64,000 nt of DNA from an uncultured Candidatus Saccharibacteria bacterium (GTDB lineage: Bacteria > Patescibacteriota > Minisyncoccia > UBA6257 > 2-01-FULL-56-20), in NCBI GenBank assembly GCA_964484655.1, contig CAZAFA010000003.1:28147-92146 (forward strand). Direction: 5' to 3'. Below, one piece after another: positions 4,426-60,994 of the stretch; position 1 is the stretch's first letter, and every line of letters begins with the position of its first letter. The notes below the pieces were generated by a model, which was given only the letters and a program-made list of their open reading frames with translations, was not told where the DNA came from and made no database searches. The position numbers and the translations under genes were made by a program.

Positions 4426-4426
4426 A

Positions 4427-4453
4427 GAGGCGGACCCGCAGGTCCGCCTCTCT
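4427..4453. terminator. Bidirectional hairpin between convergent dnaE and the 4458..4883 gene
   Basis: GAGGCGGACC-CGCA-GGTCCGCCTC perfect 10-bp stem immediately after the dnaE stop. Confidence 0.5.
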
Positions 4454-7061: not shown

Positions 7062-7090
7062 AAAAGGCGGCCGGTCGGCCGCCTTTCCCG
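7062..7090. terminator. Bidirectional hairpin AAGGCGGCCGG-TCGG-CCGCCTT shared by the 6668..7060 gene and greA
   Basis: GC stem with A-tract and T-tract flanks between convergent genes. Confidence 0.5.
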
Positions 7091-16485: not shown

Positions 16486-16525
16486 GGTGTTGGATGACGA
16501 TACGTGAGGTGGTGGTCAGGGGCAA

Positions 16526-17326: not shown

Positions 17327-18172
17327 TTACTTGGACTGGCGGCCGGGGCGGCGCTTCACGATGAACTTGGTGGACGGCTTGGTCTTGCTGCGGGTCTTGC
17401 GGCCGCCGGTGATGTTGCCCCAGATGTCCTTGGGCTTGCGGGTACCGCGCGGCTGCCGGCCTTCGCCGCCTCCGTACGGATGGTCCACGGGGTTCATCGC
17501 CGAGCCGCGGACGGTCGGGCGGACGCCCATGTGACGGTTGCGGCCAGCCTTGCCGATGACCACGAGGCTGTGCTCGCCGTTGCTGACCTCGCCGAGGGAG
17601 GCGAAGCAGGTGGAGAGGACCTTGCGGACCTCGCCCGAGGCGAGCTTGAGGTTGGTGTAGCCGGCCTCGTGCGCCATGACCTCCATCGAGGTGCCGGCGC
17701 TCCGGGCGAGCTGGCCGCCCTTACCGGGCTGGAGCTCCACGTTGTAGACCTTGAAGCTGGTCGGGAAGTTGCCGAGGCGCATGCGATTGCCCGTGGTCAG
17801 CGGCACCTGCTCGTCGGCGACGATGGTGTCCCCCACCTTGAGGTCCTTCGGCGCGATCACGTAGCTGTACTCGCCGGTCTCGTACTTGATGAGCGCGATG
17901 AACGCCGTGCGGTACGGGTCGTACTGGAGCGACTCGACCACGGCAGGAACGCCGAGATGCGCGGTCTGCTTGAAGTCGACCAGGCGGTACCGGCGCTTGT
18001 TGTGGCCGCCCTGGTGGCGCATGGTGATGCGCCCGGTGCTGTTGCGGCCGGCGTGGTTCTTCAGCGTCACCAGGAGCGACTTCTTCGGCTTGGCGCCCTT
18101 GGTGAGCGTCTTGCCGTAGGAAACCGTCGTCATCTGACGGCGCGAAGGCGAGGTCGGCGAGTACTTCTTCAT
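17327..18172 (-). CDS. rplB: 50S ribosomal protein L2
   Basis: 281 aa with typical L2 motifs (...[10 protein letters not shown]...). Confidence 0.9.
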
Positions 18173-18176
18173 GGGA

Positions 18177-18452
18177 TTACTGGATGGTGATGGTCTGGCC
18201 GGCCTTGAGGGTGACGGTCGCCTTCTTGATCGCAGGCTTGGTGCCCGCGAGGCGTCCCCAGCCCTTCCGCTTTGCGGGACGGGTCGTGATGGTCACGTCG
18301 ATCGGGTCCACCTTGTAGAGCTCCTTCACGAGCTTCTTCACCTCGGTCTTCGTGGCCTCGGGGCGGACGAGGAAGGTGTACTTGCCCTTGCCCGAAGCCA
18401 TGGCCGTCTTCTCGGTCACCCAGATGCGCTTGATGAGGGTACGATCCAGCAT
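18177..18452 (-). CDS. rplW: 50S ribosomal protein L23
   Basis: Sequence and operon order. Confidence 0.9.
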   Translation of the reverse strand: MLDRTLIKRIWVTEKTAMASGKGKYTFLVRPEATKTEVKKLVKELYKVDPIDVTITTRPAKRKGWGRLAGTKPAIKKATVTLKAGQTITIQ

Positions 18453-18453
18453 G

Positions 18454-19107
18454 TTACTTGGTGAGGGAATAGCGCTCGGCGATGACGGGCAGGGCCTTCT
18501 GGTCGACGAGGATGTTCTTGTAGTTGAGCAGATCGTAGACGTTGAGCGACACCGGGGAGACGATCTTCGCCTTCACGAGGTTGCGGCCGATGCGGGTCAC
18601 GGTCGTGTCCTCGGGGTTGCGCACGATCAGAACGTCCACTTTCTTATGGTTCTTCGGCAGCGCGAGGAACGAGGAGAGCCGCGCGAAGAGCTCCTTCGTC
18701 TTCGGGGTCTCGACCTCGAAGTCCGTCATGACCTTCAGCTCCTGATCGGCGAGCCGCTTGGAGAGGATGGACTTGATGGCGGTGCTGCGCATCTTGCTGT
18801 TGACCTTCTGCGAGTAGTCGCGGTCCTTGCGGGGGCCGTGGCTGACGCCGCCGCCGACCCAAATCGGGCTGCGGCGGGAGCCGTGGCGGGCGCGGCCGGT
18901 GCCCTTCTGCTGCCAGGGCTTGGCGCCGGTACCGGAGACCTCGCCGCGGTTCTTCACGTGCGCCCACGGGCGGCGGGCGTTCGCCTGCTGCGCGACGAGC
19001 ACCTGCTTGACCAGGGCCGGCTTCCACTCCGTGTCGAAGACGCCCTCGGGGAGGGAGACCTTCCCCTTGGGGTCGGCGGAGGCGAGGGAGTAGAGCTGTG
19101 CGTCCAT
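18454..19107 (-). CDS. rplD: 50S ribosomal protein L4
   Basis: Sequence and operon order. Confidence 0.9.
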   Translation of the reverse strand: MDAQLYSLASADPKGKVSLPEGVFDTEWKPALVKQVLVAQQANARRPWAHVKNRGEVSGTGAKPWQQKGTGRARHGSRRSPIWVGGGVSHGPRKDRDYSQKVNSKMRSTAIKSILSKRLADQELKVMTDFEVETPKTKELFARLSSFLALPKNHKKVDVLIVRNPEDTTVTRIGRNLVKAKIVSPVSLNVYDLLNYKNILVDQKALPVIAERYSLTK

Positions 19108-19653
19108 TTACTTCGTGATGAGGATGAGGGCGCCGCGAGCGCCAGGAACGGCGCCCTTGATGAGGATGAAGCGGCCGTCCGCGTCGACCTCGACGACCTT
19201 CAGGCCCTTGATGGTGTTCCGCTCGTTGCCCATGCGGCCGGCCATCTTGCGGCCCGGCACGACGCGCTGCGGCGCGGTGCTGCCGATGGAGCCCGGATGG
19301 CGCTGGCGGTTCTTCTGGCCATGGCTAGCCATGCCGACGCCCGCGAAGCCGTGGCGCTTGACCACGCCCTGGAAGCCGCGGCCCTTGGAGTAGCCGGTGA
19401 TCTTCACCTTGTCGCCGGGCTTGAACTCCTCCAGAGAAACAGGAGCGCCCACCTCGTAGGTGGACGCGTCCTCAATGCGGAACTCGCGCTTCGTCGTGCC
19501 GGCTACGAGCTGGATGGCGGAATAGCCGTCCTTCTCGACGGTGCGGACCTGCGAGACGGCGGTCTCGGGGATGTCGAGGCGGGTCACCGGGGTAACCTTA
19601 TCGCCGTCCCAGACCTGGGTCATCGCGACTTTGCGGGCGAGCAGGAAGCTCAT
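19108..19653 (-). CDS. rplC: 50S ribosomal protein L3
   Basis: MSFLLARKVAMTQVWDGDKVTPVT... Confidence 0.9.
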   Translation of the reverse strand: MSFLLARKVAMTQVWDGDKVTPVTRLDIPETAVSQVRTVEKDGYSAIQLVAGTTKREFRIEDASTYEVGAPVSLEEFKPGDKVKITGYSKGRGFQGVVKRHGFAGVGMASHGQKNRQRHPGSIGSTAPQRVVPGRKMAGRMGNERNTIKGLKVVEVDADGRFILIKGAVPGARGALILITK

Positions 19654-19837
19654 CGGGGTAAAAAAATAAGGTGTTCCTTACCTTGTGCGCCGAACGGGAC
19701 ACAAAATGCTCGGCAAGTGTAACCAGGGGTTCACGCATTGGCAAGAGGCTGGCTCCCAGAAAGGGGCGGGGATTCAACGATCCTTCTCCTCCCCGCCTGG
19801 CTGGCTTGGGCGATCGAATAGTTCGTCCGCTAACCAA

Positions 19838-19867
19838 GGAGAAGCCCCGCCTGCGCGGGGCTTCTCC
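19838..19867 (-). promoter_or_regulatory. Perfect 13-bp GC-rich hairpin (GGAGAAGCCCCGC-CUGC-GCGGGGCUUCUCC) inside an unusual 233-nt rpsJ-rplC spacer. Candidate attenuator or r-protein leader element.
   Basis: Inverted repeat read directly from the sequence. The rest of the S10 operon has intergenic gaps of 0-12 nt. Confidence 0.4.
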
Positions 19868-19886
19868 AGGACAGGGTCTCCCCTGC

Positions 19887-20210
19887 TCAGATCATCTTCA
19901 GCTCAACGTCCACGCCTGCAGGCAGGTTGAGGTTGCTGAGAGACTCGATGATCTTCGGGTTCGGGTTGAGAATGTCGACGAGCCGCTTATGCACGCGGAG
20001 CTCGAACTGCTCGCGCGAGTTCTTGTCGATGTTCTGCGCCCGGTTGACCGTGTACTTCCGCAGCGATACCGGCAGCGGGATCGGTCCCTTGAGGTCGGCT
20101 TCGTTACGCTCGGCAGTCTCGATGATCTGCTTGGCGGTGTTGTCGACGAGCTTGTGGTCGTACGACTGAATCCGGAGCCGGAGCTTGGGGCCTGCTGCCT
20201 CTTTCGCCAT
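19887..20210 (-). CDS. rpsJ: 30S ribosomal protein S10
   Basis: MAKEAAGPKLRLRIQSYDHKLVDNTAKQI... Confidence 0.9.
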   Translation of the reverse strand: MAKEAAGPKLRLRIQSYDHKLVDNTAKQIIETAERNEADLKGPIPLPVSLRKYTVNRAQNIDKNSREQFELRVHKRLVDILNPNPKIIESLSNLNLPAGVDVELKMI

Positions 20211-21409: not shown

Positions 21410-21487
21410 GGGTGTTCGAGTGGTAGTTGGTGATTGTTGTACGACTTAGGGAATAAGCGGCTTTCTAAAGCGGAGTTATAGTACGCG

Positions 21488-21946
21488 TCAAGCCGCCGGG
21501 GTGTCAACGTGGCGAGGCCGCATGCGCGCGCGGATGGCCGCCTCTACCTCGTGGCAGTCCCTGATTCCCGGGAAGACGATCTCCTTGGTATGGCCGCCCG
21601 CCGTGTTGATATGGAGGGTGCCGATGCCAAGCAGCCGCTCCACGAGGCTCTGGCTCACCTGGGTGTCCTGGATGCTCTCATACTCGGCGAACGTCTGGCT
21701 CGTCGAGAGCAGACGGTATTCCCGGGCGATGCCGTGCTCGTAGAGCGCGAGCCGATCAGCCCTGCGGACCACCTCGAGCATGATCAGGCCGACCGCTACC
21801 GCGGCCACGAGGAAGAGACCGAACCAGATGTTGAAATAGAAGCCTACCAGCGAGAGCAGCGCGACGAACGCCAGTCCCGCGTAGCCGCCTACATGGACCG
21901 CCGGACTCGCGTAGATGGCGCGGAGCGGGGCCTCATGCTGGTCCAT
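21488..21946 (-). CDS. Membrane protein with a bacterial PH (YdbS/YdbT-like) domain, inserted between fusA and tuf
   Basis: Two TM helices followed by a bPH-like region (...YRLLSTSQTFAEYESIQDTQVSQSLVERLLGIGTLHINTAGGHTKEIVFPGI...). Confidence 0.55.
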   Translation of the reverse strand: MDQHEAPLRAIYASPAVHVGGYAGLAFVALLSLVGFYFNIWFGLFLVAAVAVGLIMLEVVRRADRLALYEHGIAREYRLLSTSQTFAEYESIQDTQVSQSLVERLLGIGTLHINTAGGHTKEIVFPGIRDCHEVEAAIRARMRPRHVDTPAA

Positions 21947-26944: not shown

Positions 26945-27017
26945 GCCTCTATAGCTCAGTTGGTAGAGCAGCTCCCTCTTAAGGAGACGGTCCTAGGTTC
27001 GAGCCCTAGTGGAGGCA
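26945..27017 (+). tRNA. trnK: tRNA-Lys (anticodon CUU)
   Basis: GCCTCTA...TGGAGGC acceptor, D-arm GCTCAGTTGGTAGAGC, anticodon loop CUCUUAA, T-arm CTAGGTTCGAGCCCTAG. No encoded CCA. Confidence 0.75.
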
Positions 27018-27023
27018 CAGCGA

Positions 27024-27057
27024 GACAGAACGGGCGCCTGAAGGCGCCCGTTCTGTC
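27024..27057 (+). terminator. Perfect 15-bp hairpin GACAGAACGGGCGCC-UGAA-GGCGCCCGUUCUGUC immediately after tRNA-Lys
   Basis: Inverted repeat read directly from the sequence. No U-tract. Confidence 0.45.
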
Positions 27058-39804: not shown

Positions 39805-39862
39805 CGTGTAAAAAATAAGCTCAGAAATTATTTGAGGGCATCATGCGATGCCCTCAAATACT

Positions 39863-41552: not shown

Positions 41553-41583
41553 AGAGGCGCTCCGCAGGAGCGCCTCTTCTTTA
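41553..41583. terminator. Hairpin AGAGGCGCUCC-GCA-GGAGCGCCUCU plus T-tract after tsaD. Bidirectional, also abuts the minus-strand gene end.
   Basis: Perfect 11-bp stem followed by TCTTT. Confidence 0.5.
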
Positions 41584-45661: not shown

Positions 45662-45735
45662 CGGGCTGTAGTATACCGGTAGTACGCATGCATGGGGTGC
45701 ATGTAGACCGGGTTCAATTCCCGGCAGCCCGACCA
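45662..45735 (+). tRNA. trnP: tRNA-Pro (anticodon GGG), 3'-CCA encoded
   Basis: CGGGCTG...CAGCCCG acceptor (C1-G72), anticodon stem CATGC/GCATG with loop AUGGGGU (G37), T-arm CCGGGTTCAATTCCCGG, ACCA end. Confidence 0.7.
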
Positions 45736-45740
45736 GGCAA

Positions 45741-45771
45741 CGCGAAAGCCGCTCATCGAGCGGCTTTCGCG
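45741..45771 (+). terminator. Perfect 14-bp hairpin CGCGAAAGCCGCUC-AUC-GAGCGGCUUUCGCG after tRNA-Pro
   Basis: Inverted repeat read directly from the sequence. Confidence 0.45.
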
Positions 45772-45894
45772 TACCCCGTAGAGATTGACCCGGCCAGAAG
45801 CCAGGTGGGAGAGCTCAGCGTACGGCCCACGGGCCGAAGCGATTCGCAATCCCCTTTCATTAGCAGTCGAGAATCTCTACGGGGCTGCCTTACC

Positions 45895-50569: not shown

Positions 50570-50950
50570 TTACTTCAGTGCGACCTTCCGCTTGCCGCTG
50601 CCTGCGGTCTTGCGGACGTTGCCGCGGACGGTACGGGAGTTGGTCTTGGTGCGCTGGCCGCGCGTCGGGAGGCGGCGGGAATGCCTGCTGCCACGATAGG
50701 TGCCCAGGTCCTTGAGGCGCTGGACGTTCGTCTTCACGTACTGGCGGAGCTCGCCCTCCACGCGCACGTTCTCGAGGCTGTTCTGGATCTTCGTGATCTC
50801 GTCGGTGGTCAGGTCCGCGGCCCGCTTCTTCGGGTCGATCTTGGTCGATTCCACGATGCGCGTCGCCGTCACCGGACCGATGCCGTACACGTACGTCAGC
50901 GCGATGGTGACGCGCTTGTTGTCCGGGATGTTGACGCCGAGGAGACGCAT
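50570..50950 (-). CDS. rpsM: 30S ribosomal protein S13
   Basis: MRLLGVNIPDNKRVTIALTYVYGIGPVTA... Confidence 0.9.
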   Translation of the reverse strand: MRLLGVNIPDNKRVTIALTYVYGIGPVTATRIVESTKIDPKKRAADLTTDEITKIQNSLENVRVEGELRQYVKTNVQRLKDLGTYRGSRHSRRLPTRGQRTKTNSRTVRGNVRKTAGSGKRKVALK

Positions 50951-60959: not shown

Positions 60960-60994
60960 AGAGGACGCCATACGGCGTCCTCTCTTCTTTTTCT
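60960..60994. terminator. Hairpin AGAGGACGCC-AUAC-GGCGUCCUCU with a T-tract, between the 60999..61574 gene and obg
   Basis: 10-bp perfect stem followed by CTTCTTTTTCT on the plus strand. Confidence 0.45.

Follow-up and report, generated by a model that had tools for sequence, protein, structure and literature searches.

A predicted transcription-unit boundary between rpsJ and rplC, with a conserved terminator-like hairpin, candidate promoter and leader, in a genome placed in the Paceibacteria

Why should rpsJ and rplC, the genes for the ribosomal proteins uS10 and uL3, be held apart in a gene cluster whose other junctions are nearly all tight? The question arises from an earlier note on a 64-kb stretch of DNA (the window), which described a structured spacer interrupting an otherwise gap-free S10 operon. 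On the minus strand the end of rpsJ (19887) and the start of rplC (19653) leave between them a spacer, 19654-19886, of exactly 233 nt, the length given in that note; the rplC start is supported by homologues of 181-186 aa, whose alignments span the full length and begin at the identical start. The accompanying statement that every other junction from tuf to rpsE measures 0-12 nt holds with one exception seen, the 40 nt between rplV and rpsC (16486-16525). Read along the minus strand, the genes are rpsL, rpsG, fusA, an ORF for a 152-aa membrane protein, tuf, rpsJ, the spacer and rplC, and as rpsJ starts 2 nt past the tuf stop we take it to be the last gene of a tuf-rpsJ unit. By its S10 and L3 protein sequences we place the source genome, whose G+C content is 62-65%, in the Paceibacteria (Parcubacteria), a lineage of the candidate phyla radiation; the closest species-level genome, JALHNY010000006, has an S10 that is 90% and an L3 that is 80% identical. 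We consider it likely that the spacer is the boundary of two transcription units, at which a hairpin (T1) would end tuf-rpsJ, and a conserved promoter and leader would start the rplC operon (Table 1).

Table 1. Coordinates of genes and predicted elements at and around the rpsJ-rplC junction
Feature	Position in window	Strand	Basis or remark
Predicted promoter-like TTGACA-18-TACTAT 5' of tuf	21478..21507	-	promoter scan; would drive tuf-rpsJ
rpsJ (uS10, 107 aa)	19887..20210	-	ORF and translation
Small hairpin CAGGG-GAGA-CCCUG, directly 3' of the rpsJ stop	19872..19885	-	fold
T1, 13-bp perfect hairpin, GCAG loop	19838..19867	-	inverted repeat, fold and covariation
Tail after T1, UUGGUUAGCGGA, imperfect U tract	19826..19837	-	sequence
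T2, 8-bp stem GGCGGGGA/UCCCCGCC, 17-nt loop, then CCUUUCU	19765..19797	-	inverted repeat
Putative -35 hexamer TTGCCA, rplC promoter	19739..19744	-	promoter scan and conservation
Putative -10 hexamer TACACT, rplC promoter	19716..19721	-	promoter scan and conservation
Predicted rplC 5' UTR, about 57 nt	19654..19710	-	conserved in 14 relatives
P1 leader hairpin UGUGUC-CCGUUC-GGCGCA, near the leader 5' end	19686..19703	-	RNAalifold
UAAGGAACACC motif	19670..19680	-	GAACAC invariant in subclade
U7 run on the mRNA	19660..19666	-	sequence
rplC (uL3)	19108..19653	-	ORF and translation
T1-like intergenic terminator hairpins in the window	4426-4451, 41553-41577, 60960-60983, 7063-7086		

The junction was compared across relatives, of which 80 species-level genomes were gathered via S10 (67-90% identical to the rpsJ product over its full length) and 13 closer ones via L3; a metagenome scan with uL3 returned distant relatives only (at most 50% identity), which were of no use for comparing spacers. 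The rpsJ-rplC distance ranges from 68 to 2086 nt (median about 757) in the 48 Paceibacteria genomes with both genes, at least 14 further genomes do not have rplC within about 2.5 kb of rpsJ, and a tight junction was found in none of the relatives examined. Within the close subclade the two genes are 223-1222 nt apart, and the interval holds zero to two small, poorly conserved hydrophobic ORFs. These inserted ORFs are small membrane-protein genes, often followed by a second terminator-like hairpin just before the promoter, and they are missing only in the window (233 nt) and in one relative, L173 (223 nt). The most economical reading is that the small genes were lost in the lineage of the window. 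The junction distances and the inserted genes together lead us to group rpsJ with tuf, and to regard rplC as heading an operon of its own. The spacer had rightly been called structured, and it appears to separate rpsJ from rplC functionally; it does not interrupt one S10 operon as had been proposed, since rpsJ closes the tuf unit and rplC opens the next, as in the relatives. A literature search found no publication on the rpsJ-rplC junction in Paceibacteria or candidate-phyla bacteria.

The 3' boundary of the tuf-rpsJ unit is marked by T1, the perfect 13-bp GC hairpin already reported after the rpsJ stop, which begins 19 nt past that stop and has the form GGAGAAGCCCCGC/GCAG/GCGGGGCTTCTCC (19867-19838). 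Four distinct perfect hairpins of 13 bp or more, T1 among them, occur in the window, as against none in 30 first-order Markov random sequences, and the T1 region together with the small hairpin upstream of it folds with a dG of -41.4 kcal/mol (z -5.8 relative to shuffles). A small hairpin between the rpsJ stop and the predicted terminator is also present in several close relatives. T1 itself is found at the matching position in 11 of 11 close relatives, with the core CCCCGC-loop-GCGGGG, and the RNAalifold consensus of these relatives contains 13 pairs, seven of them with compensatory changes and almost none broken. More widely, most of 48 relatives have a strong hairpin 3' of rpsJ, usually accompanied by a U run, and in the nearest species-level genome the equivalent of T1 is followed by U5. 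T1 is also built like the other gene-end hairpins of the window, in which a GC core is flanked by purine-rich sequence on the 5' side and by pyrimidine-rich sequence on the 3' side.

In having a GC-rich perfect stem-loop straight after the last stop of a unit, with a conserved position and compensatory changes, T1 resembles intrinsic terminators, but it differs from them in that the U tract of its tail, UUGGUUAG, is degenerate (UUGGUU). The 3' arm and the tail together are pyrimidine-rich (CUUCUCCUUGGUU), and the tails in relatives vary, from a clear U5 in L001 to some that are as degenerate as the one in the window. With too few U in its tail, T1 was missed by a consensus terminator scan that requires at least 5 T in 8. 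From its structure and conservation, T1 is best read as a putative intrinsic terminator of tuf-rpsJ, which may at the same time stabilise the 3' end of the mRNA. The GC stem had been suspected of being a riboregulator or a non-coding RNA; its presence in the 11 relatives and its seven compensatory pairs point instead to a conserved terminator hairpin.

Beyond T1, similarity of the spacer to relatives is limited to 19748-19655, a segment that corresponds to a predicted promoter and the rplC leader. The sequence TTGCCA-17-TACACT (19744-19716) agrees with a sigma-70-type consensus at 9 of 12 positions. To our knowledge, the promoter preferences of candidate-phyla RNA polymerases have not been characterised. 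TTGC.A and TACACT are invariant in all 14 relatives compared, and the 17-18 nt between the hexamers vary, a pattern that is hard to explain without promoter function. Most likely, the hexamers form a sigma-70-type promoter, predicted from the sequence, of a separate rplC operon, and would start the long rplC-rplD-rplW-rplB-... transcript at about 19710-19709, i.e. 6-7 nt past the -10 hexamer. Within that operon the genes for uL4, uL23 and uL2 lie at 18454-19107, 18177-18452 and 17327-18172. The preceding unit, tuf-rpsJ, would be transcribed from the promoter-like site 5' of tuf, and perhaps also by read-through from rpsL-rpsG-fusA; the region upstream of tuf, including GTTGACAC and a leader, is conserved in five relatives.

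As the U tract of T1 is not canonical, some read-through from T1 into rplC is possible, and this makes it conceivable that tuf, rpsJ and rplC share a single transcript in which T1 is an internal attenuator, or a processing and stability element, that tunes stoichiometry, the promoter-like site being unimportant. Such an arrangement is consistent with five of the wider relatives, in which the spacer measures 68-86 nt and no promoter pattern was seen between the hairpin and rplC; these imply that read-through must feed rplC in some Paceibacteria. We nevertheless regard a single transcript as quite improbable here, given the invariant -35 and -10 hexamers around a variable spacer, and given that in many close relatives the interval contains two terminator-like hairpins in succession as well as unrelated small genes. 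In these relatives rplC needs a promoter of its own, and the conserved sequence at that place is the same as in the window.

Between T1 and the predicted promoter lies a segment of about 90 nt (19837-19750) for which no conservation was found in relatives. The possibility raised in the earlier note that the spacer is not conserved thus applies to its middle third and is untrue of the terminator, the promoter and the leader. This segment contains the second stem of that note, T2, which does exist as an 8-bp stem at 19765-19797 (arms GGCGGGGA/TCCCCGCC, 19765-19772 pairing with 19790-19797), but for which neither special stability nor conservation could be upheld: its stability does not exceed that of shuffles (z -0.8, with 40 of 200 folding equally well) and no sequence similarity to relatives was found, so that we rejected T2 as a conserved element. 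T2 and T1 have the words CAGGCGGGG, GGAGAAG and CCCCGCC in common, and at the relative position of T2, after the inserted small ORFs, a terminator-like hairpin is present in most close relatives. The loss of the small genes would explain both the lack of conservation in the middle of the spacer and a decayed T2; T2 is probably a decayed terminator left by this loss, or else an incidental stem, and the segment of about 90 nt that includes it may be a remnant of the place occupied in close relatives by one or two genes for small membrane proteins and a terminator of their own. The sole ORF in the spacer, of 79 aa (19598-19837), has a GC3 of 0.51 as against 0.85-0.96 in real genes, and was on this ground rejected as spurious.

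The earlier note had also entertained a small non-coding RNA. An independent RNA of this kind might end at T1 or at T2, either of which could act as its terminator, and the whole spacer region (19640-19900) does fold better than shuffles (z -3.2). However, no promoter-like site was found within the spacer upstream of T1 or T2, so that there is no sign of a small RNA gene of its own here; moreover, T1 starts just 19 nt past the rpsJ stop, and the segment 19837-19750 is not conserved in any relative. Nor did the search for a known RNA family produce one: with Rfam 15 at gathering thresholds the whole 64-kb window yields tRNAs only (there is no rRNA gene within it), and around the spacer (19500-20000, E <=10) the matches are to unrelated small RNA models, lie below threshold and cover the T1 hairpin only, none of them reaching half of a family's gathering score. 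We therefore hold a separate small RNA to be very improbable.

The predicted leader folds with a dG of -15.0 (z -2.6), and a covariance model of it (R2) has one match in the window and otherwise matches in the close subclade only. P1 is the only consensus helix that RNAalifold detects in the leader. Of its cells 95% are paired, but its covariation is weak: one pair is compensatory, and most changes affect one side only (U-G to C-G). Both flanks of P1, GCAUUUUGUG and CAUUUCUAAGGAACACC, are conserved beyond the needs of a purely stabilising hairpin, which would allow for a specific binding partner. On the 3' side the conserved CAUUUCUAAGGAACACC reads CACAAGGUAAGGAACACC in the window and includes the invariant GAACAC.

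The note had placed a ribosome-binding site before rplC, but no recognisable Shine-Dalgarno sequence was found there; such sites are almost absent from the real genes of the window, and the genome is largely without them. One candidate, UAAGGA, was rejected as a Shine-Dalgarno sequence both because genes of this genome generally lack such sites and on the ground of its position, which in the subclade is 12-21 nt away from the AUG, with ACGUCG in its place in L174. Leader words that resemble the 3' end of 16S rRNA (ACAAGGUAA, GGAAC) were likewise set aside, a 9-nt match being within chance (about 0.3 expected by our own estimate). A different signal is suggested by AACACC: of its 23 occurrences, five lie no more than 30 nt 5' of a gene start (those of tuf, rplC, rpsC, rplO and the gene at 50950), compared with about 0.35 expected, an enrichment of about 14-fold. 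The tuf leader ends in GAACACCC-AUG in the window and in GAACCAC(C)-AUG in relatives. On the basis of the scarcity of Shine-Dalgarno sites, the enrichment of AACACC and the end of the tuf leader, the rplC leader may be read as a 5' hairpin followed by an A/C-rich segment that loads ribosomes, that is, as a leader for stability and translation initiation, in which P1 would lie near the 5' end and the A/C-rich stretch would contain GAACACC. The same motif recurs before the starts of other highly expressed genes in this Shine-Dalgarno-poor genome. GAACACC is 16 nt from the AUG at rplC and 0-13 nt from it at the other four genes, and a role in initiation is for this reason less clear at rplC.

The tail adjoining rplC had been called A-rich, which is true of the plus strand only; the transcribed strand has a run of U7 (19666-19660), present in 5 of the 14 relatives and absent from 9. 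We rejected an attenuator at this site, since the hairpin next to the run is weak (-5 to -7 kcal/mol) and the run itself is missing in those nine relatives. Together with the preceding UA, the U run forms TATTTT, ending 9 nt before the rplC ATG, and this belongs to a wider pattern: boxes of the form TAnnnT pile up 6-9 nt before starts, with 15 matches over 62 genes and 0-1 at any other distance, which indicates that many mRNAs here are leaderless. TATTTT might thus be the -10 box of a second promoter giving a leaderless rplC mRNA, and in four relatives that share the U run (L167, L161, L170 and L175) a TAYTTT or TAACTT box ends 7-9 nt before the ATG. This seems improbable to us, as the box is missing from 9 of the 14 relatives, no acceptable -35 element accompanies it, TATTTT is poor as a -10 hexamer, and the conserved promoter upstream already explains expression.

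A further question is whether the leader does more than stabilise the message and assist initiation. It could be an autoregulatory site, comprising P1 and the UAAGGAACACC region, at which a ribosomal protein of the operon represses translation or stability of the rplC operon mRNA, an idea that would add to the terminator and promoter described above and not replace them. The note had considered a site of this kind for the spacer; it stays a candidate only in the leader of about 57 nt, to which the note had not drawn particular attention. The default candidate for the protein is uL4, by analogy with Escherichia coli and a candidate in Archaeoglobi. The leader is under purifying selection in the 14 relatives and the adjacent spacer is not; it is unique in the window, and it heads the operon that encodes uL4. 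Candidate ribosomal protein leaders 5' of rplC are also found elsewhere, in Archaeoglobi (PMC7247131), in cyanobacteria (PMC12873609) and, as the model R1 described below, in other Paceibacteria. Against this, the leader has a single small helix with weak covariation (one compensatory pair), its invariant GAACACC is not specific to it and recurs before other start codons, it has no strong structure masking the start codon and no strong attenuator (its best 3' hairpin being that beside the U run), and it shows no similarity to R1 or to the ribosomal protein leaders of Rfam. We accordingly rate autoregulation as doubtful.

The S10 leader of E. coli, which is controlled by uL4, lies 5' of rpsJ; one of its five hairpins is a NusA-dependent attenuator, and this type is confined to Gammaproteobacteria (PMC3616713; PMC10931766). 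The leader in the window is comparable to it in heading an operon that encodes uL4 and in being a candidate feedback site, but lies 3' of rpsJ and has one hairpin of 6-7 bp without a strong terminator; multiple hairpins with an attenuator, as in the E. coli type, were not found in the window, the hairpin by the U run reaching just -5 to -7 kcal/mol. An L4 leader candidate directly upstream of rplC has been reported in Archaeoglobi (PMC7247131) and a conserved structure upstream of rplC in cyanobacteria (PMC12873609). These share with the window a conserved RNA directly 5' of an rplC that heads its unit, whereas the leader in the window has no Rfam match in sequence or structure and far weaker structural support.

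Other Paceibacteria have a rplC leader of a different kind. An RNA of about 90 nt, which we modelled as R1, lies between a promoter and rplC in 21 of the 80 species. It consists of a helix P0, in which RUCnCUU pairs with AAGGAY, an internal loop with invariant UAAUGG and UUCAC, and a variable and covarying helix P1, followed by a terminator hairpin with U5-7; its invariant elements are CUUUAAUGG and CAYAAGG. In an alignment guided by the model, 95% of cells are paired and eight pairs (42 cells) show compensatory changes, covariation values that were reached by none of 500 shuffles, and R1 has no match in Rfam. Judged by eye, pairing of CAAGG and UAGCC with the CCUUG and GGCUA of the terminator could constitute an antiterminator/terminator switch. 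R1 has in common with the leader in the window the order promoter, leader, rplC and the same phylum-level lineage, but differs in its two covarying helices and its terminator with a U run. Homology of the two, which a common CACAAGG might suggest, was rejected: the R1 model gave no match at E <=10 with default filters in the window and 13 subclade loci, with filters off its best score in the window and the subclade was 2.5 bits and covered the U run only, and CACAAGG occurs within the subclade only in the window and L167. It is possible, though on the whole unlikely, that the leader in the window is an undescribed, lineage-restricted and probably uL4-responsive autoregulatory leader of a narrow high-GC subclade of Paceibacteria, one of several unrelated rplC leaders that would have arisen in the candidate phyla radiation after rpsJ and rplC were uncoupled.

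The uncoupling itself has parallels. The str operon of cyanobacteria and plastids has the order rps12-rps7-fus-tufA-rps10, with rps10 after tufA. In Archaea, uS10 is as a rule separate from uL3-uL4-uL23 (PMC10833476). As in these groups, uS10 is set apart in the window from uL3-uL4-uL23-uL2, with rpsJ closing the unit after tuf and rplC heading the next; unlike them, the window has its two units still adjacent, 233 nt apart, and in its relatives the units are split by variable small genes and not relocated. The element in the window is ordinary, and is new only as an undescribed instance in an uncultivated group.

For annotation, the "S10 operon" of this genome and its relatives should be represented as a tuf-rpsJ unit and a second unit that begins with rplC, and the GC hairpin T1 annotated as a terminator, not a riboregulator. 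As far as literature searches show, the expression signals of candidate-phyla bacteria are largely undescribed, and the locus offers a concrete candidate promoter and leader for the main ribosomal protein operon of an uncultivated member of this group. The rpsJ-rplC junction emerges as a clade-wide break and insertion site, at which subclades of the Paceibacteria have evolved different rplC leaders, and these may serve as a starting point for the study of ribosomal protein feedback in reduced genomes.

In 21 of the 80 Paceibacteria species collected by means of S10, rplC is preceded by a structured, roughly 90-nt leader that is not present in the window. Its two helices show strong covariation, with 8 compensatory pairs, a level equalled by none of 500 shuffles. 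Invariant in it are CUUUAAUGG and CAYAAGG; the element also has a terminator hairpin, which carries a U run. A search of Rfam yielded no match to this leader, which looks like a transcription attenuator and is possibly an r-protein leader.

Besides this leader, two more conserved sequence patterns were observed upstream of rplC in other Paceibacteria subclades (see Table), and the rplC leaders seem to differ between subclades. The shortest rpsJ-rplC spacers, of 68-86 nt, contain as their sole element AAGGNUAGC, followed by a hairpin with GCUAA in the loop, to which UUAGC in these spacers is complementary, and then a U run. No promoter pattern was seen in these short spacers, and rplC may depend at these loci on regulated read-through. 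In close relatives of the window genome, one or two small hydrophobic ORFs (about 90-140 aa) lie between rpsJ and rplC. These have no match in Pfam and most of them show no obvious similarity to each other; a 97-aa homologue is common to L001 and L162, two of these relatives. The junction behaves as a spot of insertion and turnover.

Besides the hairpin that follows rpsJ, the window has three others with a perfect stem of 13 bp or more. Two of them are located just past the ends of tRNA genes, and are therefore presumably terminators.

The str cluster of the window contains an unusual yet conserved insert between fusA and tuf, in the form of a 152-aa membrane ORF, whose same-position counterparts in relatives contain the Pfam domain bPH_2 (PF03703). 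The tuf gene itself is preceded by a conserved leader of about 60 nt, with the order AAGCCGCUUAUU..., AAGUCGUAA, a CA-rich stretch and GAAC(A)C(C)-AUG. Two words of this leader, AAGUCGUAA and AUCACC, are shared with the conserved 3' terminus of 16S rRNA, an overlap which may be due to chance.

Coordinates of the features (window positions, or loci of relatives, L-numbers, with positions in the locus after the colon)
Feature	Window	Relatives
About 90-nt rplC leader		L023:3287-3379; L061:3361-3450; L079:3443-3531; L067:3894-3982; 17 more loci
CUGGAUUYCC-hairpin-GGRACGAUCAAGAnnAUG, about 70 nt before rplC		L009, L010, L017, L024, L028, L030, L038, L055
...CAUUAUUCAAAGCGAUG, preceded by terminator-like hairpin, about 50 nt before rplC		L011, L047, L062
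Shortest rpsJ-rplC spacers		L054, L042, L064, L065, L078
Small hydrophobic ORF regions		L001:2838-3604; L161:1018-1952; L162:2550-2843; L165:2509-2811; L167:462-1213; L168:2012-2832; L169:75-380; L174:151-426; L175:94-941
Hairpin past tRNA gene 26945-27017	27024-27057	
Hairpin past tRNA gene 45662-45732	45740-45772	
Third hairpin	39829-39860	
Membrane ORF	21488-21946 (-)	
tuf leader	21410-21477 (-)	tuf upstream regions of L001, L162, L163, L165, L168
TAnnnT boxes (examples)	8513, 25635, 26602, 29221, 41996, 49499, 63206	
AACACC sites	21420-21411 (tuf); 16492-16486 (rpsC); 11704-11699 (rplO); 19675-19670 (rplC); about 50970 (gene 50570-50950)	

Across the window, boxes resembling a -10 element (TAnnnT, in many cases TATACT) have their ends 6-9 nt upstream of start codons: 15 hits over the 62 predicted genes fall at these distances, compared with 0-1 at any other. 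The same genes have almost no Shine-Dalgarno motifs. A further motif, AACACC, is found repeatedly in front of highly expressed translation genes, at a distance of 0-16 nt from the start codon. Of its 23 occurrences in the window, 5 are placed upstream of start codons in this way, versus 0.35 expected. It is a candidate Shine-Dalgarno-independent translation-initiation motif. The window genome appears to be rich in leaderless mRNAs and to initiate translation without Shine-Dalgarno pairing.
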